64,000 nucleotides of DNA from Dehalococcoidia bacterium. GTDB lineage: Bacteria; Chloroflexota; Dehalococcoidia; Lucifugimonadales; CAZENU01. Below, piece after piece: positions 20,734-58,557 of this stretch (the first letter of the stretch is position 1; each line of letters opens with the position of its first letter). A program made the translations under genes and the position numbers. Location of the stretch: contig CBDHDR010000002.1 of NCBI GenBank assembly GCA_965261815.1, positions 2,000,143 through 2,064,142 on the forward strand, written 5' to 3'. A model generated the notes under the pieces. The model was not told where the DNA came from. It ran no database searches and worked only from the letters and a program-made list of their open reading frames with translations.

Positions 20734-20989
20734 CCCCCACCTCCGTCATTGCTATGAAAATAGACGTGCCACGCCCCACCCGTCGTTCCCGCGAAGGCGG
20801 GAACCCATCCCCGCCCTTGGACTCTGGACCAAACGCCGGGGGCAGCAGCACCCATTTACATACCCTTATGTGGCCTGCGCAAGGCCATGGTGTTTCCCGC
20901 GAACGCAGGAATCCATCCCCGACCGGGTGCCCCACCATGACACCGGAAGCAGTCCGTCACGCCCCCCTGCCCAATCAGGTGGGGAATCT
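20734..20989 (+). repeat. REP1 mosaic element (degenerate or expanded copy)
   Basis: Contains CGTCGTTCCCGCGAAGGCGGGAACCCATCCCCG, a second palindrome TTTCCCGCGAACGCAGGAATCC, and the right-hand module ATGACACCGGAAGCAGTCCGTCAC...CAATCAGGTGGGGAAT seen at 31.8, 35.2 and 40.6 kb. Confidence 0.7.
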
Positions 20990-21006
20990 GGCGCCCCGCG
21001 GGCGCT

Positions 21007-31733: not shown

Positions 31734-31792
31734 GTCGTGCGGCAACGTCCCCACCCCTACCCATACTTCGATGCTTATAGCACCATGGTCCC

Positions 31793-32160
31793 AAATCCCC
31801 CACCTCCGTCGTTCCCGCGAAGGCGGGAACCCATCCCCGACAGGGTGCACCACTATGACACCGGAAGCAGTCCGTCACGCCCCCCGACCCAATCAGGTGG
31901 GGAATCTAGGCCAACCCAAATTCCCCACCCCCGTCGTTCCCGCGAAGGCGGGAACCCATCCCCGACAGGGTGCGCCACTATGACACCGGAAGCAGTCCGT
32001 CACGCCCCCCGACCCAATCAGGTGGGGAATCTAGGCCAACCCAAATTCCCCACCCCCGTCGTTCCCGCGAAGGCGGGAACCCATCCCCGACAGGGTGCAC
32101 CACTATGACACCGGAAGCAGTCCGTCACGCCCCCCGACCCAATCAGGTGGGGAATCTAGG
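31793..32160 (+). repeat. three head-to-tail copies (period 125 bp) of a 111-bp REP1/MITE-like element with 10-bp terminal inverted repeats
   Basis: The elements span 31795-31905, 31920-32030 and 32045-32155. Each runs from ATTCCCCACC (copy 1: ATCCCCCACC) to GGTGGGGAAT and is separated by CTAGGCCAACCCAA. The internal palindrome is GTTCCCGCGAAGGCGGGAAC. Confidence 0.85.
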
Positions 32161-35171: not shown

Positions 35172-35179
35172 GAAACCCC

Positions 35180-35329
35180 AATTCCCCATCTCCGTCATTC
35201 CCGCGAACAGCCTGCCCCCGCGTAGGCGGGGGCGGGAATCCATCCCCGACAGGATCCACCACTATGACACCACTATGACACCGGAAGCAGTCCGTCACGC
35301 CCCACCGGCCCGATCAGGTGGGGAATCCA
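35180..35329 (+). repeat. REP1/MITE-like element, expanded copy (146 bp)
   Basis: Runs from ATTCCCCATC (35181) to GGTGGGGAAT (35317-35326). It carries a 25-bp insertion inside the palindrome and an 11-bp internal duplication (CACTATGACAC twice). Confidence 0.75.
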
Positions 35330-35359
35330 GGGAAAGCTGAACCGCAGGAGGAGACACAC

Positions 35360-36271: not shown

Positions 36272-36294
36272 CCGGCGATATGGGAGAAGTTCCA

Positions 36295-37285
36295 ATGAAC
36301 CACACCAGCTACATAACGACCCCCATCTACTACGTGAACGACGAGCCTCACCACGGGCACGCCTACACGACGGTGCTCGGCGACGTCCTGGCGCGGTACG
36401 CCCGTCTTCGGGGCCGCGACGCGTTCCTGCTGGTCGGGACCGACGAACATGGGCAGAAGGTGCAGGACGCGGCCCGCGCCAGCGGCGTCGACCCTCAGAC
36501 CCAGGCGGACCGGCTCGTGGTCAAGTTCCGAGAGGCCTGGCGAGGGCTGCACGTCGAGTACGACGACTTCATCCGCACGACCGAGGAGCGGCACCGGCTC
36601 GTGGTCACCGCGGTCCTCCAGCGCCTCTGGGACAAGGGCGAGATCTACCGGGGCGAATACGAGGGTTGGTACTGCGTTCCTGACGAGCGGTTCTGGACCG
36701 ACAAGGACGTGATCGATCGTCAGTGCCCCGACTGCGGGCGCCCTGTGGAGTGGCTGTCTGAGCAGAACTACTTCTTCCGCATGGGCAAACACCGGGAGTG
36801 GCTGATCGAGCACGTCGAGACGCACCCCGACTTCATCCTGCCGGAGAACCGGCGCAATGAGGTGCTCGGCTATCTGCGCCGGCCCCTGGGCGACCTGTGC
36901 ATCTCGCGGCCGGCCGCGCGCGTCGGCTGGGGGATCCCTCTGCCGTTCGATCCCGCCTACGTCACGTACGTCTGGTTCGACGCGCTGCTGCTGGTGATCG
37001 ACGCGATCGGCGGCGTCAACCGCTACGTCGAGCCCGCCGCGCCCTTGGCGGCCGCGAAAGAGGGCCGCAGATGACGTGGAAGCGGTGCTGTACCACGCGG
37101 CCGAGGCGCTCCGGCTCGCGTCGGTGCTCCTGTGGCCCATAATGCCCGAGCGGATGGCCGAGCTATGGCGCCGCCTCGGCTGGGATGCGCCGACCCCGCT
37201 GCCGGAGGGGCTCTCCTGGGGAGGACTCGCGCCGGGTACGCCGGTGGCGTCCGGCTCGCCCCTCTTCCCGCGGCTCGATGAGTGA
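36295..37285 (+). pseudogene. metG: methionine--tRNA ligase pseudogene (large internal deletion plus frame break)
   Basis: The N-terminal half is intact (YITTPIYYVNDEPHHGHAYT, CPDCGRPVEWLSEQNYFFRM, VTYVWFDALL). After nt ~36990 the sequence jumps to the anticodon-domain segment ...NRYVEPAAPLAAAKEG. There is a stop at 37072-37074 and a frame change into EAVLYHAAEALRLASVLLWPIMPERMAELWRRLG (37076-37285). No KMSKS motif is present anywhere. About 329 codons remain, against more than 500 expected. Confidence 0.8.
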
Positions 37286-37354: not shown

Positions 37355-39055
37355 CCAACAATCGTCATTCCCGCGACGGCGGGAATCCACGGGGAGGGGC
37401 GGCGATGGGTTCCCGTCTGCACGGGAACGACGGGCGGCGACGGCGCACCCACAATCGTCGGCGAGAATCCACGCACCCACAACCGTCATTCCCGCGACGG
37501 CGGGAATCCACGGGGAGGGGCGGCGATGGGTTCCCGTCTGCACGGGAACGACGGGCGGCGACGGCGCACCCACAATCGTCGGCGAGAATCCACGCACCCA
37601 CAACCGTCATTCCCGCGACGGCGGGAATCCACGGCGGGGCCGGCGATGGGTTCCCGTCTGCACGGGAACGACGGGAGGCGGCGGGCGCACCCACAATCGT
37701 CGGCGAGAATCCACGGCCCCACAATCGTCATTCCCGCGACGGCGGGAATCCACGGGGGGGGGGGGCCGGCGATGGGTTCCCGTCTGCACGGGAACGACGG
37801 GCGGCGACCCGCACCCACAAACGACGGGCGGCGGCGGCGCACCCACAATCGTCGGCGAGAATCCACGCACCACAATCGTCATTCCCGCGACGGCGGGAAT
37901 CCACGGGGAGGGCCGGCGATGGGTTCCCGTCTGCACGGGAACGACGGGCAGCGTACCCACAATCGTCGGCGAGAATCCACGCACCCACAACCGTCATTCC
38001 CGCGACGGCGGGAATCCACGGCGAGGGGTGGGGATGGGTTCCCGTCTGCACGGGAACGACGAGAGGCGGCGGGCGCACCCACAATCGTCGGCGAGAATCC
38101 ACGCACCCACAACCGTCATTCTCGCGAAGGCGGGAATCCACGGCAGCCACAATCGTCATTCCCGCGACGGCGGGAATCCACGGTGGGGGCCGGCGATGGG
38201 TTCCCGTCTGCACGGGAACGACGGGCGGCGACGGCGCACCCACAATCGTCGGCGAGAATCCACGGCCCCACAATCGTCATTCCCGCGACGGCGGGAATCC
38301 ACGGTGGGGGCCGGCGATGGGTTCCCGTCTGCACGGGAACGACGGGCGGCGGCGGGCGCACCCACAATCGTCGGCGAGAATCCACGGCCCCACAATCGTC
38401 ATTCCCGCGACGGCGGGAATCCACGGGGGGGGGGCGGCGATGGGTTCCCGTCTCCACGGGAACGACGGGCGACGGCGCACCCACAACCGTCATTCTCGCG
38501 AAGGCGGGAATCCACGGGGGGGCCGGCGATGGGTTCCCGTCTGCACGGGAACGACGGGCGGCGGCAGCGTACCCACAATCGTCGGCGAGAATCCACGCAC
38601 CCACAATCGTCATTCCCGCGACGGCGGGAATCCACGGGGGGGGCCGGCGATGGGTTCCCGTCTGCACAGGAACGACGGGCGGCGGCGGGCGCACCCACAA
38701 ACGACGGGCGGCGGCGGCGCACCCACAAACGACGGGCGGCGGCGGCGCACCCACAATCGTCGGCGAGAATCCACGGCCCCACAATCGTCATTCCCGCGAC
38801 GGCGGGAATCCACGGGGGGGGCCGGCGATGGGTTCCCGTCTGCACGGGAACGACGAGAGGCGGCGGGCGCACCCACAATCGTCGGCGAGAATCCACGGCC
38901 CCACAATCGTCATTCCCGCGACGGCGGGAATCCACGGCGAGGGTGGCGATGGGTTCCCGTCTGCACGGGAACGACGGGCGGCGGCGGGCGCACCCACAAA
39001 CGTCATTCCCGTGAGTGGAGTAACGCAAGGGTCTCTCTCTACGGGAACGACGGGG
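37355..39055. repeat. 1.7-kb tandem array of a ~121-bp three-module palindromic unit (BIME-like REP1 array)
   Basis: There are 14 copies of GTCATTCCCGCGACGGCGGGAATCCACGG, starting at 37364, 37485, 37606, 37727, 37878, 37993, 38115, 38155, 38276, 38398, 38489, 38609, 38787 and 38909. They interleave with about 13 copies of GATGGGTTCCCGTCTGCACGGGAACGACGGG and with the conserved GCACCCACAATCGTCGGCGAGAATCCACG. Confidence 0.9.
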
Positions 39056-39844
39056 CTAGACCTTGCGGTTCTTGGTCGTGTACCAGGGCAGGCCGTCGGC
39101 CATCTCCATCTCGTAGTCGGCGAAGATGTTGCGCCAGCGGCCTATGGCGATCTCGGCCACCTGCCCGAACACGAGCCTGATCTCCTCCTCGGCCCACGGC
39201 GCCGTGCGCTGCTCGATCACGTGCCTTATGGCGCGCATGTTCGCCGACCAGCCGATGTTGGTGGCGAGGCCGATCGGCGCGACGCGCCGGAACGCCGAGG
39301 TCAGCTTCTTCTTCTCGTCGAACGGCTTGTCGCCCTCGTCTATCTCGAACAGCTCCGCGAGCTCGACCTGCAGCCGGGCGAGCTCGTCCATCGTCCGCGC
39401 GAATATCTCCATGCCCTCGGTCGACTCCCGGATGGCGGTCGGCGCGTACCAGCTCAGGTCGGTCAGGCGGGCGAAGCGGAGGCTCTCCTGCGACATGGCG
39501 GTCCCCGCCCTGTGTCGGACGAGCTCGTGGGTGAACACCCTGCTCACGTCGGCGAAGAAGAAGTTGGCGGAGGCGTGCTCGAAGATCGAGCCGTCGCCCT
39601 TCTCCAGCGTGTTCGTCAGGTACGACCTGTTCGTCCCGCGGACTCTGGTGATGTTGGGGTTCAGCTCCGTGCCGAAGGACCGGTAGCAGCAGCGGCCGTA
39701 TATCTCGGTGACCAGCTCGGCGGACGACTCGGCGTCCGAGCGCCACTCCGGGACGCCGTAGTGGGCCATCAGCGCGGCGATGCCGTCCGCGTTGGCCTGC
39801 GTCTCGCCTATCAGGAAAACCTTCGGCTCCACCACGTTGCCCAC
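39056..39844 (-). CDS. thyX: FAD-dependent thymidylate synthase
   Basis: ThyX signature FTHELVRHRAGTAMSQESLRF (RHR...S motif). GTG 39844 is preceded by GGGAGG. The track start at 39949 runs into repeat DNA and is rejected. Confidence 0.85.
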   Translation of the reverse strand: MGNVVEPKVFLIGETQANADGIAALMAHYGVPEWRSDAESSAELVTEIYGRCCYRSFGTELNPNITRVRGTNRSYLTNTLEKGDGSIFEHASANFFFADVSRVFTHELVRHRAGTAMSQESLRFARLTDLSWYAPTAIRESTEGMEIFARTMDELARLQVELAELFEIDEGDKPFDEKKKLTSAFRRVAPIGLATNIGWSANMRAIRHVIEQRTAPWAEEEIRLVFGQVAEIAIGRWRNIFADYEMEMADGLPWYTTKNRKV

Positions 39845-39884
39845 GTCTGCCTCCCGGTCAGCAGTCGCGGCTAAGGTTACCACG

Positions 39885-40135
39885 GGGGTAGTGGATAGTG
39901 GATGGTGGGTAGTGGTTAGTTGGGGAATCGGGTGGAGGTGGAGCCCCACCTGCCAAAATGCCCCACCTCCGTCATTCCCGCGAACGCGGGAATCCAGGGC
40001 GAGGAGTGGGGATGGGTTCCCGTCTCCACGGGAACGACGGGTGGCGCACCCACGTCGTCATTCCCTCGATGGCGGGAATCCAGCCCCCACATCGTCATTC
40101 CCGCGCAGGCGGGAATCCAGGGGTGGGTTTCCCCG
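39885..40135. repeat. REP1 mosaic cluster (W module plus four palindromes)
   Basis: GGTAGTGGATAGTGGATGGTGGG (W module). Then CCCCACCTCCGTCATTCCCGCGAACGCGGGAATCC, GATGGGTTCCCGTCTCCACGGGAACGACGGG, GTCATTCCCTCGATGGCGGGAATCC and GTCATTCCCGCGCAGGCGGGAATCC. Confidence 0.8.
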
Positions 40136-40207
40136 CCAGGAAATCTACGCATCTCCACGACACTTATCTCCCGCAACGGGAGTTACGCAAACGTCTCCCC
40201 GGATCGG

Positions 40208-40606
40208 CTACTGGCCGGCTGCCAGCCTTTCGTAGCCCCACTGCGCCACGAGCAGACCGGCGGCTACGGCGGCCAGGCCGACGGCCACCTGCAGGACGAC
40301 GTTGGCCGCTCCGGCGAGGTAGGCCCCGTCTCGAACGAGCCTGATGGTGTCGATGCCGAAGGCAGAGAACGTCGTGAAGCCGCCGAGGACGCCGACCACG
40401 AGGAACGCTTGGGCGTGTGCGCTCAGCGGCTGCCGGGCCTCGGCGTATCCGGCGACGAGGCCGATGACAAGGCAGCCCGCCGCGTTGACCGCAAGGGTGC
40501 CGTAGGGAAATCCGCCGCTGCCGACGGCCCCCTGCACCCACGTCGCGACAAGATAACGCGACACCGCCCCCACCAGACCCCCGGCTCCTACCATCAGCAC
40601 AACCAA
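40208..40606 (-). CDS. crcB: fluoride ion channel CrcB/FluC
   Basis: GGLVGAVSRY...FPYGTLAVNAAGCLVIG...GVLGGFTTFSAF are CrcB hallmarks. TTG 40606 lies 6 nt after AGGAGG. Length 133 aa. Confidence 0.85.
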   Translation of the reverse strand: MVVLMVGAGGLVGAVSRYLVATWVQGAVGSGGFPYGTLAVNAAGCLVIGLVAGYAEARQPLSAHAQAFLVVGVLGGFTTFSAFGIDTIRLVRDGAYLAGAANVVLQVAVGLAAVAAGLLVAQWGYERLAAGQ

Positions 40607-40614
40607 GCTGGACC

Positions 40615-40725
40615 TCCTAGATTCCCCACCTGATTGGGCTGGCCGGCGTGACGGAGTGCTTCCGGTGTCATGGAGTAGTCGGGTAGTGGGTAGTGAATAG
40701 TGGATAGTTGGGGAGTGGTTGTCAC
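40615..40725 (-). repeat. partial REP1 element (right-hand module only, inverted) plus W module
   Basis: CTAGATTCCCCACCTGATTGGG...GACGGAGTGCTTCCGGTGTCATGG is the reverse complement of the right half of the 31.8-kb element. It is followed by GTAGTGGGTAGTGAATAGTGGATAGTTGGGG. Confidence 0.7.
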
Positions 40726-40885
40726 GCGGGGAGAATAGCACGGATGTAGTGTCCAGAGGTCGTGGTGTCGGGTGGCTGCTGAGGTGTACTTCATGACGTT
40801 GACGGCGCCGCAGAACGTCTGAACTGTGATTCGTGGGATTTGGTGATGGACATGACTGGTGAAGGATGCAAGACGGGGCACATGG

Positions 40886-41378
40886 GGTTACGCAAAGGTC
40901 TGTCTCCAGGGGAACGACGGTTCATGGTGGATAGTGGATAGTTGGGGTGTTGGGAGTTACGCGGAGGGCTCCTGTCGCGGGTGTCAACGGCGGGGATGGG
41001 TTCCCGTCTGCACGGGAACGACGGTTGGTAGTGGATAGTGGATGGTTGGGGTGTTGGGAGTTACGCGGAGGGCTCCTGTCGCGGGAATCCACGGCGGGGA
41101 TGGGTTCCCGTCTGCACGGGAACGACGATTCATCGTGGATAGTTGGGGTGTTGGGAGTTACGCGGAGGGCTCCTGTGGCGGGTGTCAACGGCGGGGATGG
41201 GTTCCCGTCTGCACGGGAACGACGATTCATCGTGGATGGTTGGGGTGTTGGGAGTTGCGTGGAGGGCTCCTGTCGCGGGTGTCAACGGCGGGGATGGGTT
41301 CCCGTCTGCACGGGAACGACGATTCATCGTGGATAGTTGGGGTGTTGGGAGTTACGCGGAGGGCACCTGTCGCGGGTA
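40886..41378 (+). repeat. second tandem array: four-plus copies of a 97-104-bp unit (W module + GAGTTACGCGGAGGGCTCCTGTCGCGGG + B palindrome)
   Basis: GATGGGTTCCCGTCTGCACGGGAACGACG starts at 40995, 41099, 41196 and 41293. A degenerate leading copy lies at 40886-40920. The array ends about 60 nt before the ATG at 41442. Confidence 0.85.
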
Positions 41379-44051: not shown

Positions 44052-46943
44052 TCAGATGACCAGCTTCGCGTCCTTTGGCCGCGACTTGCCGCCGTGGACC
44101 GATGGCTCGGCGCACCACTTGGCGGCCAGGCGGCGCACGGCAACGTAGACTTCCTCGTCGAAGCCGAGCAGGTCGCAGACCACCCGCCGGTCCAGCAGCG
44201 CGCGGTTGGCGTCGGCGTCCGCTAGGTAGGCGGGCTTCAGTTCCACGTCACGGAACTCGTTGAAGATGTCCTCAGCCGTGCGGAGTTGCTCGTCCGTGAG
44301 TGCGCGGAAGTCTAGCAGAGGGAGAGACGGCGCAGAGAGGCGAGTCATGCTGGCCTTACTTGACTGCTGACGGCTGGAGTGCCACCAGTAGGCCATCAGC
44401 CCCAGCGTACTGTTCCCCCACACCATTAGGCAGACTTCAAACCGTTCGTCGTCGAGAATCACGTTGGGCCATACTCTACCGCCGGCTGCCTGCTGTTCTG
44501 TGAACGCAAACGCAAGAGCCTGTGAGCCAAATGTGAAATCGCGGTTTAGGTGGATACGGGTTGCGGTTTCCCACAGCTTTGCCGCTCTAAGTTCCATTCC
44601 TGGCTTCACCCTCAAGGCTGAATCAGGACGGCACACCAAGAATCTCTCGGCATCGGCATCGTGGTTCCAAAGAGATGGGTAGGTTGCGGTGGGGCTCGAC
44701 TCCGACTTCACAAACGGCCCGTTGTGACTCTTCAGGATAAGCATCGAATCGTGGACGCCCAGCCGCCCAACCTCGCTCAGCTGAGCCACTGGTAGACTCT
44801 CGGGAGTTGACTTGGCGGGCAGCCAGATCTTGCCCCTGGATAGGGAATGTGCAACCTGTGCTATAGAAGCATCGAGGAGACGCGCCGCTCCCCATCCCGC
44901 CTCTTCGGGTTCGATGGGAACGTCCAATGTCTCGCCTGCAATGGCATCGCCACAGTACACTGGGCTGCCGCCGTACGGCCCATCCTCCAAGCGCCGGACG
45001 TCGCCGGACAGTATTGCTTTGGAAACCTCTTTGGACTCCACGAAACTCGCGGGCCTGCGCCTGAGAGAGGCAAATTTCCCCCTTCCGCTTCGCTTCTCAC
45101 TCGACGCGATCCTTCGACCGACTACCAGGCACTCGGCCATCCCCGTATCTGACGAGAAGGACATGTCGTTACCATTGGCGGCGATGGTCACGATCGAAAT
45201 GTCGGTGTATCGTGTAGCCATCAACTTTCTGAACTTGGCCCAAGATGAGCCGTTGATCGCGGTAAACGGCAGCACCAGGGCGATAACGCCGTTGGGTCTC
45301 AGCTTGCGCGTAGCGAGCGCCGCGAAGGCGGAACCCAGACCCGCGTGACCGTGATAGGACGTTCCAGTCGCAAGCCGCTTTAATCTGCGTGCCATTTCCG
45401 CCTGGTCATCGTCGGAGGCGTCAAAGGCCGCGAAGGCGGCGTTCAGCACTCCGTCATCGGAATCGTAGTGCTTGGTATTGCTCGTGAATGGCGGGTTCAT
45501 TACCACGACGTCGAAGCTCTCGTGGGGGAAGTCGGCGATGACCTGCACCGCCGTCTCCTCTCCCGCGCTGCCGGTGCGCATCGCCGGGTCGCTGGTGTTG
45601 ATCGTCGGCATCACCGCTTCCGCAGACAGTAGCTCCAGGGAGCCGATGCTGACGCTGTCGTCCTTCATCCGGCCGTAGGGCATCGTGTAGAGGCGAGACT
45701 GCCCGAAGCTGACGGACGGTTCGACTCCCGACAGCGTGGAGCCGGTGATGTGGATTGCCGAGGGCATGACGTCGCAGCCGTAGAGCACCTCCTCCATCAT
45801 CGCGCGGTGAAGCTCGGTGGGGTCGCCGCCAGTCCGCTCGTGCCGGGCAGCGATCTCGTCGTACACAGCGGAGAGCAGGGCGCCGGTGCCGCAGGCGAAG
45901 TCCCCGATGCGCAGCTTGCCGATGGCGTCGGGGTCCGACCAGTCCACGCCCTCCATCTTGGCGACGGCCAGCCGGGCCAGGAGCGCGGCGGACGCGGGCA
46001 GCGTGTAGAAGGTGGCGAGGTACTTGCGGTCCGCGATGAGGCGCTGGAAGATGCGCCCGGTCAGGTCGTGGGCGTTGTCCACGCCCGCCGCGCTTAGCGA
46101 CTGCGCGGTGTCCCTCAGCCTCCGCAGGATGGCCGCCGCTTCGCCCGACGGCAACTGCTCAAGGATGTCCTTGGCGATGGCGAAGATGGCCCAGTAGTTG
46201 ATCTCCAGGATGTCGTTCCAGGCGGCCAGCACCTCGCCCTGGGGGTTGTCCACGCCGTCGCCGCACACCCTGGCCAGGGGATCGACCTCCGTGTGCATCC
46301 CGGCGATGCGTTCGTGGAAGACGAGGGCGTTGGCGATGATGGCGCAGGCCATGCGGCGGGTCTGCGGCACGTCGATCATTCCGAGACGGCGTGCTATTGC
46401 CGTAGTGATGCCCGGCCGCAGCTTCGAAACTTCGTCCAGGAGCTTTGCGGCCCCTTCGATGCCCTCTTCCAGCGTAGAGGCGGCCTGGTGGACGGCGCGC
46501 TGCGGAACGCATACCAGGCGGACCATGTCGGCCAGGTCCTCGACTCCGCCCTCCAGCCAGCCGGACTCCGGGAAGCGGCTCTCGTCCTCGGTGAGGACGC
46601 AGTATTCGAGGCGGGCCGGCGACAGGGCGGCGCGCAGGTCGTGGGCGTCGCCCATCGCGGCCGGGTAGCGGAGGGCGATGGCGGCTTCGATGACGCGCCC
46701 GTCGGCGGCCACCTCCAGCCCGAGCCGGGACCTGGCCTCCGGCTCGACGGTACGCGCGGGCATGTACTCGGCCTCGACGACCACGGGCGAGCGGCCGGGC
46801 GCGGTGACGATGATGTCGGGCCGCAGCCCGGCATGGCCGACGACGGCCTGGGTGTTCTCGGACCACACCTGCCTGCCGGGCAGCATCTCTTGGAGCAGGC
46901 TGCCCAGGGCGTTGTTGGCGTTCGGCTCGGTCTGGCGTGGCAT
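44052..46943 (-). CDS. large N6-adenine DNA methyltransferase fusion with nuclease-like N-terminus and long C-terminal region (Type IIG-like)
   Basis: Motif I is RIGDFACGTGALL, preceded by TFYTLP. Motif IV is VVMNPPFTSN (NPPF at nt 45486-45497). The N-terminus LRPDIIVTAPGRSPVVVEAEY is PD...E-x-E, i.e. PD-(D/E)xK-like without the Lys. Length 963 aa. Confidence 0.65.
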   Translation of the reverse strand: MPRQTEPNANNALGSLLQEMLPGRQVWSENTQAVVGHAGLRPDIIVTAPGRSPVVVEAEYMPARTVEPEARSRLGLEVAADGRVIEAAIALRYPAAMGDAHDLRAALSPARLEYCVLTEDESRFPESGWLEGGVEDLADMVRLVCVPQRAVHQAASTLEEGIEGAAKLLDEVSKLRPGITTAIARRLGMIDVPQTRRMACAIIANALVFHERIAGMHTEVDPLARVCGDGVDNPQGEVLAAWNDILEINYWAIFAIAKDILEQLPSGEAAAILRRLRDTAQSLSAAGVDNAHDLTGRIFQRLIADRKYLATFYTLPASAALLARLAVAKMEGVDWSDPDAIGKLRIGDFACGTGALLSAVYDEIAARHERTGGDPTELHRAMMEEVLYGCDVMPSAIHITGSTLSGVEPSVSFGQSRLYTMPYGRMKDDSVSIGSLELLSAEAVMPTINTSDPAMRTGSAGEETAVQVIADFPHESFDVVVMNPPFTSNTKHYDSDDGVLNAAFAAFDASDDDQAEMARRLKRLATGTSYHGHAGLGSAFAALATRKLRPNGVIALVLPFTAINGSSWAKFRKLMATRYTDISIVTIAANGNDMSFSSDTGMAECLVVGRRIASSEKRSGRGKFASLRRRPASFVESKEVSKAILSGDVRRLEDGPYGGSPVYCGDAIAGETLDVPIEPEEAGWGAARLLDASIAQVAHSLSRGKIWLPAKSTPESLPVAQLSEVGRLGVHDSMLILKSHNGPFVKSESSPTATYPSLWNHDADAERFLVCRPDSALRVKPGMELRAAKLWETATRIHLNRDFTFGSQALAFAFTEQQAAGGRVWPNVILDDERFEVCLMVWGNSTLGLMAYWWHSSRQQSSKASMTRLSAPSLPLLDFRALTDEQLRTAEDIFNEFRDVELKPAYLADADANRALLDRRVVCDLLGFDEEVYVAVRRLAAKWCAEPSVHGGKSRPKDAKLVI

Positions 46944-47071: not shown

Positions 47072-47108
47072 CCCCGCCCCTGGATTCCCGCCTGCGCGGG
47101 AATGACGG
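47072..47108 (-). repeat. REP1 A-module palindrome (inverted orientation)
   Basis: CCCCGCCCCTGGATTCCCGCCTGCGCGGGAATGACGG. Confidence 0.7.
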
Positions 47109-47115
47109 TTATTTT

Positions 47116-48503: not shown

Positions 48504-49830
48504 CTAGCGCCGCCGCCAGATGCCTATGGCGACGCCTAGGGCCACGAGGTTGAGCAGCACGCCTATGAGCGGCAAGACCCATACGCTGATATTGCTGCCC
48601 CCCTCGGACACCGTCAGCGTGGTCTCGGACACCGTCGCCCCGGCGGTGTCGTCGTCGGCCACCGTGACCGTCACCCCGGCGATGGTCGCGCCGTCGTACT
48701 CGTCGGCGCTCCGGGAGGCGTCGACGGCGTGGGCGATGGCGGCTGCGTCGTTCGCGGCGTCGGCGTCCTGGGCGGCGGACACCCTTACCGTCTGCGCCGT
48801 GTCCCAGTTGGACGAGGTGAAGGTCAGGGTCGCCGGCGACACCGTCACGTCGGGGCTGCCGCTCTTGGTTACACCGATCACCACGTCGGAGGCGGGCTGG
48901 GCGTCCAGGACCACCGTGTAGGTGGCGCTGCCGCCCTCGGACACCGTCAGCGTGGACGCGGACACGCTCACCGCGGCGTCATCGTCGTCCACGGTCAAGC
49001 TCACGCTCGCGATGGTCGCGCCGTCGTACTCGTCGGCGCTCCGGGAGGCGTCGACGGCGTGGGCGATGGCGGTTGCGTCGTTCGCGGCGTCGGCGTCCTG
49101 GGCGGCGGTCACCGTCACCGTCTGCGCCGTGTCCCAGTTGGACGAGGTGAAGGTCAGGGTCGCCGGCGACACCGTCATGTCCGAATTGTCGCTCACCGCT
49201 ACGCTGATCACCACGTTGCCTGATGGCAGCGCGTTCAGGACCACCGTGTAGGCGTCGTCGTCGCCCTCGGCCACTTCCACTTCGGTGAGGGACACGCTCA
49301 CCCCCGGCCTCTCGTTCACGGTGATATAGAAGCGCAGGTGAACGCGGTCACCGTCGGAATCGGCCGTCGTATAGGTGAACCGCGTCCTAGGGAACGTCGC
49401 CCTGGGCGTGCCGGTGATCGTGCGGTCCGAGTTGAAGCGCAGCCCCGCGGGCAGGTCTGGCGACAAGCTGTATCGCAGCCTGTCGTCGCCCCCCAAGAGC
49501 GGAGGGCAGGCTCACCGTCCCTATGTCTTCGCCTACTGCGTAGATCTGGTCGTCCACCGTCCGCGAGGCGAACGTCGGACTCCGGTCGGGCTGGTTCTGG
49601 GCTACGTCGTTGTCGGTGACGGTCACCCTCACGCCGGAGACTCTAACCGAGTCATACTCGTCGGCGCTGCTGGTGGCCGCGACCATGTGGGTGATGGAGG
49701 CCGCGTCGTCCACCGCGTCGGCGTCCTGGGCCGCCCGCACCGTCACCCTCTGCGCCGCGTTCCAGTTCCGCCGCGTCGATGAACGGCATCCGGCTGAGGG
49801 AGTCGAGTAACTGACGGTTGGAGATTGCCA
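48504..49830 (-). pseudogene. 5'-truncated, frameshifted adhesin-like gene (repeat units + cadherin-like/He_PIG domain + C-terminal tail anchor)
   Basis: Two frames (49387..49908 and 48504..49496) join at a G6 run (plus-strand C6 at 49489-49494) to read ...SLPSALGG/DDRLRYSLSPDLPAGLRFNSDRTITGTP. The upstream end starts mid-repeat (..NWNAAQRVTVRAAQDADAVDDAASITH) with no signal peptide. The C-terminus is VWVLPLIGVLLNLVALGVAIGIWRRR. Confidence 0.6.
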
Positions 49831-49932
49831 TACATCGATCATAGCAAAGGACGGGCGTGGTTGGCAGCCATCAAATGACAGTGACAGTGGTCCGGAATTG
49901 GGCCGCATGCACCCCTATCAGCCCAATCCCTA

Positions 49933-50702
49933 TTGGACCTGCTGGACGCCCTGGTCAATGACCGGGGCCGGGTGGCGGTAGTCGAGGCTCTGGGGGTGAA
50001 CTACCGCACCATGATGACCTGCTATGATTCCCGGCACGTGTCCCGGCGGATGCGGCAGGCGTTGGCGGACTTTCGGGCCGCGGGCGTTGGTGACGACGGC
50101 GGGGCGGAGGTTGGCGGCGAAGATGGTGCTCTGAAGGATGAGGCCGGACTCCTGGAGCAACGGGTGGCGGCGCTGGAGGAGGAGATTCTCGGGTTGCGAG
50201 AGATTGTCGAAGTCCAGGCGTGTTAACTGGAAGAGTTGGAGCGCCGGGTGGCCCGTTTGGAGCAGTCGCAGCAGCAACGGGGCGAGTCTGAAACGGTGGT
50301 GGGGCCGCAAGAACCGTCCGCGTGGCCTCCGCCCCAGCGGGGCCACGGGCTGCCCGACGCCTGGGTGGTTACGTTGGAAGAGCAGCCCAACGGGGAACAC
50401 GCCTGCGGCCCGGCGGCGGTGCTGGCGGCCGAGTGGCGCAGCCTGCGGGCCGGCGGAGATGCGGCGGGTAGCCGGGTTGACCGGGCCAGGGTTGGGGTAC
50501 GCCGGTGGGAACTGAAGCAGAGATGCTTCGGGACTTTCGCCTGACGCTGCCGCCGGAGAGGGAACCGTTGGATGGATGGAGAAGGCAAGATCATGTCCGG
50601 CGGCGGCTGGATGCCCTGGCTGAGGCACGGCGGGAGCTGAACAGGGCCAATCAGGTCCGATTGCTGCGGCGTGTGGTCACTCGGGGTATCTGGTGGAAGT
50701 AG
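49933..50702 (+). pseudogene. decayed coiled-coil gene (in-frame TAA and a -1 frameshift)
   Basis: The 49933 and 50236 ORFs share one frame, interrupted by TAA at 50224-50226 (..EVQAC*LEELERRVARLEQ..). The third piece (50505..50702) continues ..RRWEL/EAEMLRDFRLTLPPE.. if one G is restored near 50512. Confidence 0.5.
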
Positions 50703-51336
50703 CCGTTGCCGCGTTCCAGGCGTATGAACGCAAGGGTTTGGGACGGGATGTTCCTTGGCGTGGTGGTGGGTCAAGGAAGGCTTCGGGGCTGCTTGGGATG
50801 AACCGATGCTGGCCCTGACGAAGCAGGTCATCAGCGGCGCCAGGAGGACGCCGATCCGGTGGCGGCATGTCTTTGCCCCGGCCCGCGGTGCCGAGGGCAA
50901 CGTTGAGAAGCCGCTGGAATACGACGGAGTAGCGGAGTGTGAAAACCGGGGCTGAGCTGGTACTTGCTGAGTTCCATCGGGTGGGTGCAATGACAACCTG
51001 GGATCCCGTTCGGGTGATTGTCATCGCCAGTCAAGAAGCGTACGGGGCTAAGCAGGGTTCTTCAGTGAGGAACACCGTATTGCAGCAGTTCCCCATGTGC
51101 ACGAATCCGGTCCGGGGTAAAGCAACGTCCGTCATAATCTCCTCATTTAGCCGCTGGCGCCCTTTTTCTGAATCCCCCACCACGACGAGGAGGCAGGGAG
51201 GGCGTCTGGCACAGAACGGACGGCACCGGGCGGTTGGCGAGCAGGGCGGGACCATTGTGCGTAGCGGCCACCACGGCAATCAGGAGACTGGCATCATCTT
51301 GGGATTTGTTTATGCGGCTCTCGCGGTATCCCCATC

Positions 51337-54300
51337 CTAGCGCCAGCGCCGCAGCCTCCGCAGCCGGCGGGCCATCAGGATTATGATGATAATGGCTATG
51401 AGGAGCCAGAACGGCCAGCCCAGACACACCCCTTCATCAGGGCTTTGAGGCGCTAAATCTGATGGGGCCGCGGCGGACGGCACATCCGCAGTAGCCGTAG
51501 GACTGGGTTTGGGAGGAGCGGTGGCTGCCAGCACAGGTACGGCCGTCAGTGTCGGCGTGGGAGTTTCGTTGCCGCCTTGGTCCGGTGGTTGCGTTGGCGC
51601 CGGCTTAGCTATCGGCACAATGGCACTATGGCGTGGCGTGGCGATGGCTGGCGCTGACCAGTCGCTGGGGCCGACGACATTGACCGCCCTCACCCAGAAG
51701 TGGCACTCAACGCCGTTGGTCAGGCCGCCGATGCTCAGAGTGGTCGCGGCGTCAGCAGTGCCCGAGATCATCGCCGCCGCCCTGAAGTTGCTGTCGGTTG
51801 AGTATTCAACGGTGTAGTGCGTAATGCGGGAGTTGCCGTGGTTCGCGGGAGCAGTCCAGCTCAATTCCACCTGGCCGTCGCCCGGAGCCGCCGTAAGTTC
51901 CGTGGGCGCTCCGGGTATCGCGTCGTTGTCGGTTACCGTTATTGATGCCGAGCTGCCGGGCGCCCTCACCCGGTAATTGTTCCGCGCCTGAAGTGTGGCG
52001 GTAATGTCTTCGTTCGGCTCGTCCACGGTATCGTCTATGGTAGCCATGCTGAGCCTTGCGGTGTCCGCGCCGGCGGCGAGTCGCACCGTTTTATTGCCGG
52101 ACACGGTGGTGAAGTTCGCGCCGCCGGAGACACGGACCGTCACGGCGAGGGCAGCGCTTGGCGCAGGACTGGCGGTGATAATGAAGTTGGCGTCGCTCCC
52201 CTCAGTGATCGGGGAGGTATCCGCCGCGATGGATATGGCTGGCGTCCAGTTGTCGCCACCGCCGGGCGGTCGGCTGTCGTCGTCGGCGACGGTCACCGCC
52301 ACCCCGCCGACGCTCACGTTGTCGTACTCGTCGGCGCTCCGGGAGGCGTCGACGGCGTGGGTGATGGAGGCCGCGTCGTTCACCGCGTCGGCGTCCTGGG
52401 CGGCGGACACCGTCACCGTCTGGGCCGTGTCCCAGTTGGACGGGCTGAAGGTCAGCGTGGCCCGGTCCACCGTCACGTCGGGGCTGCCGCTGGCGGTTAC
52501 GCCGATCACCACGTTGCCTGATGGCAGCGCGTCCAGGACCACCGTGTAGGCGGCCTGGCCGCCCTCGGCCAGCGCCAATTCAGTAACGGACACGCTCACC
52601 CCGGCGGTATCGTCGTCGGCGACGGTCACGCTCACCTCTGCGGTCTCGTCGTCGGCCACGGTCACGCTCACCCCGGCCACGGCCACGGCGTCGTACTCGT
52701 CGGCGCTGCTGGCGGCCACCACCGCGTGGGTGATGGAGGCCGCGTCGTTCACCGCGTCGGCGTCCTGGGCGGCGGACACCGTCACCGTCTGGGCCGTGTC
52801 CCAGTTGGACGGGCTGAAGGTCAGCGTGGCCCGGTCCACCGTCACGTCGGGGCTGCCGCTGGCGGTTACGCCGATCACCACGTCGGAGGCGGGCTGGGCG
52901 TCCAGGACCACCGTGTAGGTGGAACTGTTGCCCTCAGCAACCGTCAGCGTGGTTTCGGACACGCTCACCCCGGCGGTATCGTCGTCGGCCACCGTGACCG
53001 CCACCCCGGCGACGCTCACGGCGTCGTACTCGTCGGCGCTCCGGGAGGCGTCGACGGCGTGGGTGATGGAGGCCGCGTCGTTCACCGCGTCGGCGTCCTG
53101 GGCGGCGGACACCGTCACCGTCTGGGCCGTGTCCCAGTTGGACGGGCTGAAGGTCAGCGTGGCCCGGTCCACCGTCACGTCGGGGCTGCCGCTGATGGTT
53201 ACGCCGATCACCACGTCGGAGGCGGGCTGGGCGTCCAGGACCACCGTGTAGGTGGAACTGTTGCCCTCAGCAACCGTCAGCGTGGTTTCGGACACGCTCA
53301 CCCCGGCGGTATCGTCGTCGGCGACGGACACGCTCACCTCTGCGGTCTCGTCGTCGGCCACGGTCACGCTCACCCCGGCCACGGCCACGGCGTCGTACTC
53401 GTCGGCGCTGCTGGCGGCCACCACCGCGTGGGTGATGGAGGCCGCGTCGTTCACCGCGTCGGCGTCCTGGGCGGCGGACACCGTCACCGTCTGGGCCGTG
53501 TCCCAGTTGGACGGGCTGAAGGTCAGCGTGGCCCGGTCCACCGTCACGTCGGGGCTGCCGCTGGCGGTTACGCCGATCACCACGTCGGAGGCGGGCTGGG
53601 CGTCCAGGACCACCGTGTAGGTGGAACTGTTGCCCTCAGCAACCGTCAGCGTGGTTTCGGACACGCTCACCCCGGCGGTATCGTCGTCGGCCACCGTGAC
53701 TGCCACCCCGGCGACGCTCACGGCGTCGTACTCGTCGGCGCTCCGGGAGGCGTCGACGGCGTGGGTGATGGAGGCCGCGTCGTTCACCGCGTCGGCGTCC
53801 TGGGCGGCGGACACCGTCACCGTCTGGGCCGTGTCCCAGTTGGACGGGCTGAAGGTCAGCGTGGCCCGGTCCACCGTCACGTCGGGGCTGCCGCTGATGG
53901 TTACGCCGATCACCACGTCGGAGGCGGGCTGGGCGTCCAGGACCACCGTGTAGGTGGAACTGTTGCCCTCAGCAACCGTCAGCGTGGTTTCGGACACGCT
54001 CACCCCGGCGGTATCGTCGTCGGCCACCGTGACTGCCACCCCGGCGACGCTCACGGCGTCGTACTCGTCGGCGCTCCGGGAGGCGTCGACGGCGTGGGTG
54101 ATGGAGGCCGCGTCGTTCACCGCGTCGGCGTCCTGGGCGGCGGACACCGTCACCGTCTGGGCCGTGTCCCAGTTGGACGGGCTGAAGGTCAGCGTGGCCC
54201 GGTCCACCGTCACGTCGGGGCTGCCGCTGATGGTTACGCCGATCACCACGTCGGAGGCGGGCTGGGCGTCCAGGACCACCGTGTAGGTGGAACTGTTGCC

Positions 54301-57300
54301 CTCAGCAACCGTCAGCGTGGTTTCGGACACGCTCACCCCGGCGGTATCGTCGTCGGCGACGGACACGCTCACCTCTGCGGTCTCGTCGTCGGCCACGGTC
54401 ACGCTCACCCCGGCCACGGCCACGGCGTCGTACTCGTCGGCGCTGCTGGCGGCCACCACCGCGTGGGTGATGGAGGCCGCGTCGTTCACCGCGTCGGCGT
54501 CCTGGGCGGCGGACACCGTCACCGTCTGGGCCGTGTCCCAGTTGGACGGGCTGAAGGTCAGCGTGGCCCGGTCCACCGTCACGTCGGGGCTGCCGCTGGC
54601 GGTTACGCCGATCACCACGTTGCCTGATGGCAGCGCGTCCAGGACCACCGTGTAGGTGGAACTGTTGCCCTCAGCAACCGTCAGCGTGGTTTCGGACACG
54701 CTCACCCCGGCGGTATCGTCGTCGGCCACCGTGACCGCCACCCCGGCGACGCTCACGGCGTCGTACTCGTCGGCGCTCCGGGAGGCGTCGACGGCGTGGG
54801 TGATGGAGGCCGCGTCGTTCACCGCGTCGGCGTCCTGGGCGGCCCGCACCGTCACCGTCTGCGCCGTGTCCCAGTTGGACGGGCTGAAGGTCAGCGTGGC
54901 CGGCGACACCGTCACGTCGCTGCTGCCGCTCCTGGTTACGCCGATCACCACGTTGGAGGCGGGCTGGGCGTCCAGGACCACCGTGTAGGCGGCCTGGCCC
55001 CCCTCGGCCAGCGCCAATTCAGTAACGGACACGCTCACCCCGGCGGTATCGTCGTCGGCCACCGTGACCGCCACCCCGGCGACGCTCACGGCGTCGTACT
55101 CGTCGGCGCTGCTGGCGGCCACCACCGCGTGGGTGATGGAGGCCGCGTCGTTCACCGCGTCGGCGTCCTGGGCGGCCCGCACCGTCACCGTCTGCGCCGT
55201 GTCCCAGTTGGACGGGCTGAAGGTCAGCGTGGCCCGGTCCACCGTCACGTCGGGGCTGCCGCTGATGGTTACGCCGATCACCACGTCGGAGGCGGGCTGG
55301 GCGTCCAGGACCACCGTGTAGGTGGAACTGTTGCCCTCAGCAACCGTCAGCGTGGTTTCGGACACGCTCACCCCGGCGTCGTCGTCGGCCACCGTGACCG
55401 CCACCCCGGCGACGCTCACGTTGTCGAACTCGTCGGCGCTCCGGGAGGCGTCGACGGCGTGGGTGATGGAGGCCGCGTCGTTCACCGCGTCGGCGTCCTG
55501 GGCGGCGGACACCGTCACCGTCTGGGCCGTGTCCCAGTTGGACGGGCTGAAGGTCAGCGTGGCCCGGTCCACCGTCACGTCGGGGCTGCCGCTGATGGTT
55601 ACGCCGATCACCACGTCGGAGGCGGGCTGGGCGTCCAGGACCACCGTGTAGGTGGAACTGTTGCCCTCAGCAACCGTCAGCGTGGTTTCGGACACGCTCA
55701 CCCCGGCGTCGTCGTCGGCCACCGTGACCGCCACCCCGGCGACGCTCACGTTGTCGAACTCGTCGGCGCTCCGGGAGGCGTCGACGGCGTGGGTGATGGA
55801 GGCCGCGTCGTTCACCGCGTCGGCGTCCTGGGCGGCGGACACCGTCACCGTCTGGGCCGTGTCCCAGTTGGACGGGCTGAAGGTCAGCGTGGCCCGGTCC
55901 ACCGTCACGTCGGGGCTGCCGCTGATGGTTACGCCGATCACCACGTCGGAGGCGGGCTGGGCGTCCAGGACCACCGTGTAGGTGGAACTGTTGCCCTCAG
56001 CAACCGTCAGCGTGGTTTCGGACACGCTCACCCCGGCGGTATCGTCGTCGGCCACCGTGACCGCCACCCCGGCGACGCTCACGGCGTCGTACTCGTCGGC
56101 GCTCCGGGAGGCGTCGACGGCGTGGGTGATGGACGCCGCGTCGTTCACCGCGTCGGCGTCCTGGGCGGCGGACACCGTCACCGTCTGGGCCGTGTCCCAG
56201 TTGGACGGGCTGAAGGTCAGCGTGGTCTGGTTGCCGGACGTCGCGGCGTCGGTGTCCGCCGTCACGTCCGAATTGTCGCTGCTCACCGTGATCACCACGT
56301 CGGAGGCGGGCTGGGCGTCCAGGACCACCGTGTAGGTGGAACTGTTGCCCTCAGCAACCGTCAGCGTGGTTTCGGACACGCTCACCCCGGCGGTATCGTC
56401 GTCGGCCACCGTGACCGCCACCCCGGCGACGCTCACGGCGTCGTACTCGTCGGCGCTCCGGGAGGCGTCGACGGCGTGGGTGATGGAGGCCGCGTCGTTC
56501 ACCGCGTCGGCGTCCTGGGCGGCCCGCACCGTCACCGTCTGCGCCGTGTCCCAGTTGGACGGGCTGAAGGTCAGGGTGGCCTGGTTGCCGGACGTCGCGG
56601 CGTCGGTGTCCGCCGTCACGTCCGAATTGTCGCTGCTCACCGTGATCACCACGTCGGAGGCGGGCTGGGCGTCCAGGACCACCGTGTAGGTGGAACTGTT
56701 GCCCTCAGCAACCGTCAGCGTGGTTTCGGACACGCTCACCCCGGCGTCGTCGTCGGCCACCGTGACCGCCACCCCGGCGACGCTCACGTTGTCGAACTCG
56801 TCGGCGCTGCTGGCGGCCACCACCGCGTGGGTGATGGAGGCCGCGTCGTTCACCGCGTCGGCGTCCTGGGCGGCCCGCACCGTCACCGTCTGGGCCGTGT
56901 CCCAGTTGGACGGGCTGAAGGTCAGCGTGGCCGGCGACACCGTCACGTCGCTGCTGCCGCTGATGGTTACGCCGATCACCACGTCGGAGGCGGGCTGGGC
57001 GTCCAGGACCACCGTGTAGGTGGAACTGTTGCCCTCAGCAACCGTCAGCGTGGTTTCGGACACGCTCACCCCGGCGGTATCGTCGTCGGCCACCGTGACC
57101 GCCACCCCGGCGACGCTCACGGCGTCGTACTCGTCGGCGCTGCTGGCGGCCACCACAGCGTGGGTGATGGAGGCCGCGTCGTTCACCGCGTCGGCGTCCT
57201 GGGCGGCCCGCACCGTCACCGTCTGCGCCGTGTCCCAGTTGGACGGGCTGAAGGTCAGCGTGGCCGGCGACACCGTCACGTCGCTGCTGCCGCTCCTGGT

Positions 57301-57762: not shown

Positions 57763-58557
57763 GGCGTCGTACTCGTCGGCGCTCCGGGAGGCGTCGACGG
57801 CGTGGACGTGATGGAGGCCGCGTCGTTCACCGCGTCGGCGTCCTGGGCGGCCCGCACCGTCACCGTCTGCGCCGTGTCCCAGTTGGACGGGCTGAAGGTC
57901 AGCGTGGCCGGCGACACCGTCACGTCGCTGCTGCCGCTCCTGGTTACGCCGATCACCACGTTGGAGGCGGGCTGGGCGTCCAGGACCACCGTGTAGGCGT
58001 GGCCCCCCTCGGCCAGCGCCAATTCAGTAACGGACACGCTCACCCCGGCGGTATCGTCGTCGGCCACCGTGACCGCCACCCCGGCGACGCTCACGGCGTC
58101 GTACTCGTCGGCGCTCCGGGAGGCGTCGACGGCGTGGGTGATGGAGGCCGCGTCGTTCACCGCGTCGGCGTCCTGGGCCGCCCGCACCGTCACCGTCTGC
58201 GCCGGTCCCGTGGACGGGCTGAAGGTCAGCGTGGCCGGCGACACCGTCACGTCGCTGCTGCCGCTCCTGGTTACGCCGATCACCACGTCGGAGGCGGGCT
58301 GGGCGTCCAGGACCACCGTGTAGGTGGAACTGTTGCCCTCAGCAACCGTCAGCGGGTTTCGGACACGCTCACCCCGGCGGTATCGTCGTCGGCCACCGTG
58401 ACCGCCACCCCGGCGACGCTCACGGCGTCGTACTCGTCGGCGCTCCGGGAGGCGTCGACGGCGTGGGTGATGGAGGCCGCGTCGTTCACCGCGTCGGCGT
58501 CCTGGGCCGCCCGCACCGTCACCGTCTGCGCCGTGTCCCAGTTGGACGGGCTGAAGG
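57763..58557 (-). pseudogene. frame-disrupted stretch of the same repeat gene
   Basis: The repeat units are recognisable but carry small indels (for example +2 near 57805, -1 near 58354, and multi-nt deletions at 58560-58600). The frame changes at least three times. Confidence 0.6.

Follow-up and report, generated by a model that had tools for sequence, protein, structure and literature searches.

Repetitive extragenic palindromes (REPs) have been split by Di Nocera et al. (2013, PMC3733652) into two superfamilies, tagged GTAG and CGTC respectively. Repeats of CGTC family 1 (CGTC-1) carry an unpaired CGTC tag, an 8-bp stem in which A-T/T-A almost always comes first, a 4-nt loop and a CCA tail; they are found mostly as head-head dimers with the tags pointing outward, and the CGTC-1 repeats of Neisseria are the sequences known as dRS3 (PMC3733652). 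CGTC repeats were listed for Proteobacteria, Chlorobi, Bacteroidetes, Spirochaetes and Thermotogae, not for Chloroflexi, and clusters of them were rare save in Neisseria and Wolbachia (PMC3733652). Neisserial intergenic mosaic elements (NIMEs), in which dRS3 repeats flank repeat sequence (RS) elements of 50-150 bp, were 'not observed in non-neisserial genomes', and from strain to strain NIME arrays vary in how many repeats they contain (Bentley et al. 2007, PMC1797815). The literature is at odds over a mobiliser: no flanking transposase was seen for CGTC REPs (PMC3733652), whereas the sequence ATTCCCGCGCAGGCGGGAATC has been assigned to the REP doublets forming hairpins (REPINs) of a Group 2 REP-associated tyrosine transposase, or RAYT, in Neisseria (Bertels & Rainey, bioRxiv 10.1101/2021.07.10.451892). 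Here we describe a tandem array of palindromic modules between metG and thyX in a 64,000-nucleotide stretch of a Dehalococcoidia contig (CBDHDR010000002.1, positions 2,000,143 to 2,064,142), referred to hereafter as the window.

We consider it likely, with a probability of about three in four, that this array is a tandem cluster of CGTC-1 REP dimers that was passively amplified and is selfish or neutral, without a dedicated function. Its layout, a REP dimer plus spacer repeated in tandem, has already been described for REP clusters, NIMEs and bacterial interspersed mosaic elements (BIMEs), and it is no new kind of system. What the locus adds is an extension of the CGTC-1/dRS3 REP class, and of NIME-like arrays that were once held to be Neisseria-only, to the Chloroflexota.

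The array modules as CGTC-1 REPs

Module A consists of CGTC, ATTCCCGC, GACG, GCGGGAAT and CCA, and has the 8-bp stem with A-T at the first and second positions and the 4-nt loop of CGTC-1. The CGTC tag begins 14 of 14 copies of A; 13 of 13 copies of module B have it on their own strand and so end in GACG when read on the + strand. The CCA tail is seen as CCACGG after A and as CCATC after B on its own strand. Twelve of the 14 A copies have the form ATTCCC-N8-GGGAAT (ATTCTC in the other two), with about 20-158 bp between successive copies; two copies with the variant stem ATTCTCGC have a T-G wobble. Judged from sequence, module A belongs to the CGTC-1 REP family and its dRS3 class, with every published feature of that class present, and the likeness to Neisseria dRS3 drawn in an earlier note on this DNA is sound.

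On the opposite strand, module B reads CGTC, GTTCCCGT, GCAG, ACGGGAAC and CCA, with CTGC as the + strand loop. It deviates from CGTC-1 only at the first stem pair, which is G-C rather than A-T, and one C-G pair of the stem is replaced by a compensated T-A. Because B matches, at 83-90%, the reverse complement of + strand REPs found at other places in the window (88% for CCACCCGTCGTTCCCGCGAAGGCGGGAACCCATCCCC at 20776), A and B are one kind of element in opposite orientation, the A-B pair being a head-head REP dimer that resembles a REPIN. The earlier note had called B a related palindrome, and its comparison with enterobacterial BIMEs was apt, since two inverted REP subtypes do alternate; it overlooked that B is the same REP inverted, and hence the dimer, as well as the fact that module A falls within a precisely defined family in the literature. 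Module C had been read as a collapsed A, and it is indeed an A copy that lacks ATTCCCGCGAC, that is, the left arm and the loop. A short motif, J (CCCACAA), stands in front of every tag.

Single-stranded A folds into an 8-bp hairpin that is lengthened by CCCCAC/GTGGGG pairing between J and a G-rich linker (z = -3.7 with flanks). The A-B dimer folds closed through its paired CGTC and GACG tags, and 256 nt of single-stranded DNA from the array had a fold z-score of -5.3.

The window holds 38 members of this REP family, in clusters of 27, 4, 4 and 3. A search with the 26-nt pattern GTCRTTCCCGYGNNNRCGGGAAYCCA returned at least 120 loci; the matches listed come from isolates (Sphingomonas, Massilia, Azospirillum, Neisseria lactamica and others) and also from long-read metagenome-assembled genomes (MAGs) of Dehalococcoidia, Planctomycetota and Nitrospirales. 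A GTT...AAC-CCATC subtype was enriched among the Dehalococcoidia MAGs. Head-head '+-' dimers 40-60 bp apart predominate both within the lineage and elsewhere. Stem covariation was counted in 160 copies from these loci, the pattern having permitted all pair combinations. The inner stem pair was C-G in 149 of the copies listed, T-A in 10 and a C-A mismatch in 1; the outer pair was A-T in 134, G-C in 9, A-C in 13 and G-T in 4. As a family, the hairpins are under structural selection, and the copies informative for strand-asymmetric wobble, as a mark of RNA as opposed to DNA function, were too few among the 160.

A string of 28 nt (CGTCATTCCCGCGCAGGCGGGAATCCAG) found at 40091-40118 and 47077-47104 (- strand) also occurs in Neisseria lactamica dRS3 copies (locus L084). 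Matches to the exact 29-mer of module A and the relatives of ThyX assign the window to an uncultured lineage of Dehalococcoidia. Scanning the Joint Genome Institute (JGI) metagenomes for the 29-mer of module A gave 0 matches, and exact-sequence look-ups of ThyX and of protein P0023 returned no record. In an uncultured Chloroflexia MAG (L149, 1850-2950) an array of about 1 kb was observed in which the CGTC REP subtypes GTCGTTCCCGCGGACGCGGGAACCCATC and GTCATGCCCGCGGACGCGGGCATCCATCC alternate in opposite orientation; the architecture of the window array thus recurs in another class of the Chloroflexota.

Structure of the array

All copy numbers given for the window array are as assembled. Tandem Repeats Finder reported a period of 121-122 bp over 37358-39004. 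Pattern searches within 37355-39055 found the A stem TTCCCGCGANGGCGGGAA 14 times, B 13 times and C 11 times, every copy on the + strand, compared to 0.05, 0 and 0 matches respectively expected by chance from dinucleotide-preserving shuffles. When the sequence was split at each A, unit lengths were 121, 121, 121, 151, 115, 122, 40, 121, 122, 91, 120, 178, 122 and 93 bp; an end element of 55 bp comes after them. The count of module A and the irregular A-to-A spacings (40, 91, 115, 151 and 178 bp) of the earlier note were reproduced exactly.

The tokenised sequence follows a strict grammar: A, a G-rich linker, B, a GC-rich linker, J, C, two variable positions (xx) and J again. The 27 REPs have the orientations +-+-+-+-+-+-++-+-+-+-+-+-+-, and within a unit A and B lie 41 bp apart, start to start, with the CGTC tags outermost. 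Each unit also has a spacer of about 50 bp that holds C, a decayed third REP, and J. This non-REP spacer is identical in kind across every unit, a single type throughout the array.

Canonical units were 89-100% identical to one another, and units 1 and 2 were 100% identical; units differ mutually by indels of 1-10 nt and at many positions. The irregular spacings had been put down to deletions or duplications of units, and the sequence bears this out: the lengths of 151 and 178 bp are caused by one or two extra copies of a 28-bp sub-repeat, the 40-bp unit is A only, and the 91- and 93-bp units are without C. The G run that follows A varies from 2 to 12 G. The joints of the sub-repeats adjoin CGTC/GACG tags, and repeated joints have the form 'CACAA-N-CG(T/A)C'. 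The components of the array are as follows.

37355-39055, + strand: whole array, 14 tandem units closed by the terminal hairpin T (Tandem Repeats Finder and tokenised structure)
37363-37483, + strand: unit 1, 121 bp, A-B-C (A at 37363-37389, B stem at 37409-37428, C at 37450-37473)
37484-37604, + strand: unit 2, 121 bp, 100% identical to unit 1
37605-37725, + strand: unit 3, 121 bp, A-B-C
37726-37876, + strand: unit 4, 151 bp, G12 after A and one added 28-bp sub-repeat (AACGACGGGCGGCG..CACCCACA)
37877-37991, + strand: unit 5, 115 bp, B-J linker shortened
37992-38113, + strand: unit 6, 122 bp, A-B-C
38114-38153, + strand: unit 7, 40 bp, A only with the variant stem ATTCTCGC; a landmark also in the L236 and L239 arrays
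38154-38274, + strand: unit 8, 121 bp, A-B-C
38275-38396, + strand: unit 9, 122 bp, A-B-C
38397-38487, + strand: unit 10, 91 bp, A-B, without C
38488-38607, + strand: unit 11, 120 bp, variant A stem ATTCTCGC
38608-38785, + strand: unit 12, 178 bp, two added 28-bp sub-repeats
38786-38907, + strand: unit 13, 122 bp, A-B-C
38908-39000, + strand: unit 14, 93 bp, A-B, without C
39001-39055, + strand: terminal element T, CGTCATTCCCGT, a 28-nt loop insert (module D, GAGTAACGCAAGGGTCTC) and ACGGGAACGACGGGG; adjoins the thyX stop codon

The array does end exactly at the stop codon of thyX, as the earlier note said, yet the last 55 bp or so (39001-39055) are a different element from the repeated unit. 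T is a REP-like hairpin (CGTCATTCCCGT...ACGGGAACGACG) whose 28-nt loop insert bears a small repeated motif, GAGTTACGC-R3-GGTCTC.

Comparison with described systems

The likeness to CGTC-1 repeats extends to the tag, the 8-bp stem, the 4-nt loop, the CCA tail, the head-head dimers, the extragenic position and, over the window and about 1.8 Mb of REP-bearing loci, the lack of a flanking transposase gene. The host differs, being a member of the Chloroflexota, and in this lineage arrays are frequent and long. NIMEs share the ATTCCC-N8-GGGAAT repeats about 50-150 bp apart, the intergenic arrays of about 1 kb, the variation in number at syntenic sites and the variation in flanking genes. In NIMEs, however, more than 100 families of RS elements and other repeats are interleaved, whereas the array described here is homogeneous, with one spacer repeated. 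Neither recombination of uptake DNA nor phage integration at dRS3 is indicated for the window array, and the host, of a Dehalococcoidia lineage, lies outside Neisseria, the genus to which NIMEs were said to be restricted.

Enterobacterial BIMEs also consist of two REP subtypes in alternately inverted orientation with conserved short linkers, lie between gene ends and vary in copy number. They are unrelated in sequence and have a GTAG tag, defined linker motifs and IHF and gyrase sites, in contrast to the CGTC tag found here. With REPINs (Bertels & Rainey 2011, 2022) the array shares the inverted REP doublet that is able to fold into one larger structure, and the master sequence of the Neisseria REPIN has the core of module A. 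The window array differs from REPIN-RAYT systems in growing by tandem duplication of blocks, rather than by dispersal of copies, and in that no cognate RAYT was found in the window or in about 1.8 Mb of related REP-bearing DNA.

The metG-thyX locus in related genomes

The genes on either side of the array are convergent.

36280-37285, + strand: metG pseudogene, matching the N-terminal part of class I MetRS (PF09334)
39056-39844, - strand: thyX, 262 aa, intact, Pfam Thy1 (PF02511), convergent with metG

The GTG start of thyX at 39844 is preceded by a GGGAGG Shine-Dalgarno sequence, the final base of the array is 39055, and crcB is next beyond thyX. Compared to intact orthologues, the metG of the window has lost 526 bp (residues ~252-419), a deletion that lies at a GCGCTGCTG microhomology, and carries a 2-bp frameshift near 37068; metG is thus dead, as had been supposed from the window sequence. 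Orthologous loci were compared with the window as listed below.

L239: flanks 98.6% nucleotide-identical to the window; 17 A, 15 B and 14 C plus T, about 1.95 kb; metG intact
Window: 14 A, 13 B and 11 C plus T; metG dead
L236: flanks 91-98% identical; 10 A and 10 B, without C and without T; metG truncated at residue ~262, its remaining part running into the array
L001 (the same as L007): flanks 93-96% identical; 3 A, 3 B and 2 C plus T; metG intact
L008: ThyX 97% identical; no array, a single copy of another palindrome (GTCGTCCTGAGC...GAAGGAC); metG intact
L009: ThyX 93% identical; no array, three tandem copies of the other palindrome of the L008 type

The left flank and T are common to the window, L001 and L239, T being kept in both of these relatives and absent from L236; a landmark, [A]cagccaca(a)t[A]tgggggccggc[B], is common to the window, L236 and L239. 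The shared flank, T and landmark make these arrays homologous. The amplified units differ from array to array: they contain C in the window and L239 and are without C in L236. Deletions into metG arose twice independently, in the window and in L236, and the genomes concerned presumably have a second metG elsewhere or are decaying. The boundaries of the array insertion could not be derived from L008 and L001, whose spacers are too diverged. This locus offers a natural series of 0, 3, 10, 14 and 17 units, in which the speed of array growth and shrinkage and the erosion of neighbouring genes can be followed, and which lends itself to a hunt for the mobiliser of CGTC REPs.

Where the spacer between metG and thyX has no A/B array it carries the palindromic repeat TGTCGTCCTGAGCGAAGCCGAAGGACCTGGGGCGGGG, in three tandem units of about 145 bp in L009 (6800-7340) and as one copy in L008 (6800-6915). 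The spacer is a hot spot for repeats of more than one family. L001 and L008 have a small ORF (open reading frame) of about 390 bp in the thyX-crcB interval. In the window (39850-40215) a cluster of four REPs takes the place of this ORF, whose loss is another REP-associated deletion.

Abundance of arrays in the lineage

The translation of the array was searched against 5.8 billion proteins. It matched 76 clusters of phantom ORFs (313-839 aa) from public assemblies, 75 of them beyond that of the window itself. Pfam domains were present within these clusters only in a fused MetG (P0021) and in P0076. Five of the 76 clusters, including that of the window, are on contigs of 3,699,399 bp, the other four being 334-382 aa long, and the source genome appears to contain at least four other arrays of at least 1 kb. 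Non-orthologous arrays reach 1.5-1.9 kb and 3.65 kb, and two were read directly: L237 has 62 alternating REPs across 3.65 kb, and in L238 a 122-bp unit is repeated 12 times within a divergent promoter region beside a rex-like gene. Long regular arrays are common in this lineage and are not bound to convergent gene ends, and that of the window is not the longest.

The earlier note had held that an array so long and regular was unusual, a view countered by the 75 further clusters, by the four among them on a contig equal in length to the source contig and by the 3.65-kb array. It had also allowed that the array would be unremarkable if such arrays were common; within this lineage they are, and the finding is mostly ordinary. 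Its further claim of phantom ORFs of 600-780 aa in all frames holds for the three frames of the + strand, where ORFs of 609-782 aa are open, and fails for the - strand, where ORFs reach 127-222 aa. Such ORFs have already been deposited as proteins (the 76 clusters), and the arrays might be mistaken for CRISPR-like (clustered regularly interspaced short palindromic) repeats or for pseudogene debris.

Origin of the array

The likeliest account is that one ancestral unit in the metG-thyX spacer would have been multiplied as one block, head to tail. Units would then have been gained and lost through unequal homologous recombination or replication slippage between copies that are 89-100% identical, with smaller slippage events at the G runs and at the 'CACAA-N-CG(T/A)C' joints, and the same instability would delete into neighbouring DNA, including metG. 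We infer recombination or slippage because whole units were duplicated together with their spacer, because copy number changes at the level of strains and because two deletions run into metG. The array would on this account be selfish or neutral repeat DNA that is tolerated between two convergent gene ends and most likely has no dedicated cellular function. Consistent with such a lack of function, there was no Rfam family (whole window at the gathering threshold, 31-42 kb at E<=1), with only sub-threshold miRNA-hairpin noise; a scan of 36.0-41.6 kb showed no consensus promoter or intrinsic terminator within the array; and the phantom ORF had no Pfam domain.

Several observations weigh against passive amplification of neutral DNA. 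The passive mechanism is drawn from the pattern, and the recurrent joints beside the CGTC/GACG tags may just as well have been left by a nuclease or transposase that is specific for the tag. Hairpin T is kept in 3 of 4 orthologous arrays. In a random sample of 235 loci chosen for this REP family, moreover, clusters of three or more REPs were rare (18 of 309): there were 191 single copies, 100 pairs, 8 clusters of three, 5 of four, and one each of 5, 6, 8, 10 and 27 REPs, the largest being the window array, so that something in the lineage favours arrays.

Growth driven by an enzyme is one rival explanation. A transposase of the RAYT (HUH/Y1) or another type might recognise the tagged hairpins and repeatedly insert REP dimers beside existing ones, as in a REPIN-RAYT system, and the REPIN geometry of the A-B pairs and the position of the sub-repeat joints next to the tags would suit such growth, as would the treatment of the Neisseria REP core as the REPIN population of a Group 2 RAYT (bioRxiv 10.1101/2021.07.10.451892). 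A related 125-bp element of the window that contains a REP also shows a clean presence/absence polymorphism with a direct repeat of 6 bp, suggesting that it is genuinely mobile. The enzyme itself was sought among the ORFs of all six frames in the window and in about 240 loci, using phmmer with E. coli TnpA-REP (the probe sequence was verified against PDB 4ER8), a scan for HUH/Y motifs and a hidden Markov model of 120 RAYT-like proteins. Neither the 64-kb window nor about 1.8 Mb of REP-bearing loci contained a Y1 transposase with cognate flanking REPs, the sole match being in L144 with a different palindrome; Pfam searches of the candidate transposase ORFs of the window were negative, and when RAYTs of the L144 type were searched for, 1076 matches were obtained, none of the best 120 listed being on a contig that matched those of the source and related genomes. 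CGTC REPs flanking a transposase gene were not seen by Di Nocera et al. (2013, PMC3733652) either. Since whole units, including the non-REP spacer, were duplicated, segmental duplication is a better fit than dimer insertion, and we regard enzyme-driven growth as unlikely. A broader version of the idea, that the lineage hosts an active system (Y1/HUH or other) which targets the CGTC-tagged hairpin and extends arrays through insertions in tandem, would fit the presence of the 26-nt hairpin with its tag and tail in many phyla, the dozens of arrays of 1-3.6 kb in this lineage that vary between near-identical strains and the insertion polymorphisms of composites that contain a REP. We hold it to be improbable; if it is true, the missing mobiliser of CGTC REPs should be looked for in the genomes of this lineage. 

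Selection for a function is a further improbable, though not negligible, explanation. The array might act as a stabiliser of 3' ends, as a bidirectional transcription barrier or insulator, or as a platform for proteins such as gyrase or an IHF-like factor, its length being selected. It lies between convergent genes, a site that Di Nocera et al. (2013, PMC3733652) present as usual for REPs; the hairpins are stable (the z-scores of -5.3 and -3.7 given above), the stems covary, and T, which adjoins the thyX stop, persists in L001 and L239. Yet copy number at this one locus ranges from 0 to 17 among close relatives, with thyX intact in all of them, and T is lacking in L236. Equivalent arrays occur in other contexts such as the divergent promoter region of L238, the array lacks T-tracts as well as any consensus for a terminator or promoter, Rfam gave no match, and a single hairpin would suffice where 27 are present.

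Misassembly, by collapse or expansion of the repeat, is very improbable. Tandem repeats of 121 bp at 89-100% identity are admittedly difficult to assemble, but a homologous array with common landmarks and distinct unit variants is found at the same locus in four independent assemblies, and the window units differ at many positions and in length, beyond what errors of repeat resolution create. The source contig is 3.70 Mb long and related contigs have names in the style of long-read assemblers, which points to a long-read origin. More remote still is a CRISPR-like array or a repetitive protein-coding gene, as the 29-nt palindromic repeat A, its regular spacing and the ORFs of 609-782 aa open in three + frames, one of which public data list as a gene (P0001), might suggest. 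CRISPR was rejected in that the spacers are conserved copies of each other (no search aimed at cas genes was made). A coding gene was rejected in that 121 bp is not a multiple of 3, the frame is broken by indels of 1-10 nt and Pfam domains are absent; the + frames are open because stop codons are absent from repeat DNA of 68% GC.

A RAYT-like gene with its own palindromes was seen elsewhere in the phylum. In the Chloroflexota MAG OZ244803.1 (L144, 458-1422, - strand) a frameshifted Y1 transposase (PF01797) has the palindrome GCGGGCGTCCCGCCCGC on both sides. Chloroflexota do carry REP-RAYT-like pairs, but with another type of REP.

Other repeats and features of the window

Three smaller repeat clusters were found in the window.

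39960-40127, + strand: small REP cluster of A, inverted B, A and A, between thyX and crcB
40934-41377, + strand: array of 4.5 units of 97 bp, with module D and an inverted B-type REP in each
31790-32160, + strand: 125-bp x 3 array, composite resembling a miniature inverted-repeat transposable element, CGTC REP plus leader-like segment, terminal inverted repeats CCYARATTCCCCACC

At the site of the 97-bp array, L236 has six B-type REP copies at 97-bp spacing. The array at 31790-32160 is missing at the exact site in L236 and L008, and ATGGTC direct repeats flank it. This composite of about 125 bp is also found at 20872-20996, 35172-35340 and 40605-40680 (- strand), and at about 4290-4400 in L001. 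The window has six copies of its leader-like segment (CACCACTATGACACCGGAAGCAGTCCGTCACGCC...CAATCAGGTGGGGAATCTAGG), each preceding an ORF and in the same sense as that ORF, and at crcB the segment adjoins an AGGAGG ribosome-binding site. The segment may be a portable promoter or leader; the composite had no match in Rfam.

The hairpin module GAGTTACGC-R3-GGTCTC occurs eight times, always on the + strand and with a conserved loop, at 39018-39035, 40180-40197 and 40885-40902 and once per unit in 40934-41377. Its positions correspond to the 3' ends of thyX and crcB and to the interior of every 97-bp unit. REP loops also serve as insertion sites for mini-palindromes: AGCCTGCCCCCGCGTAGGCGGGG lies in the loop of the REP at 35190 (35172-35340), and further cases are the insert of T and L142 at about 7555-7610. 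Since mini-palindromes are inserted in REP loops, the repeats are nested.

Two regions of large ORFs were also noted in the window. On the - strand at 44052-46943, an ORF of 963 aa has an Eco57I-type restriction-modification methylase domain, with a CGTC REP just upstream (47072-47113). Also on the - strand, 48504-63945 is taken up by huge ORFs (2141 aa, 1795 aa and more) made of tandem repeats of 330-369 bp, with weak Pfam matches to fn3_6 and LapA domains; these ORFs probably encode a giant repetitive surface adhesin.

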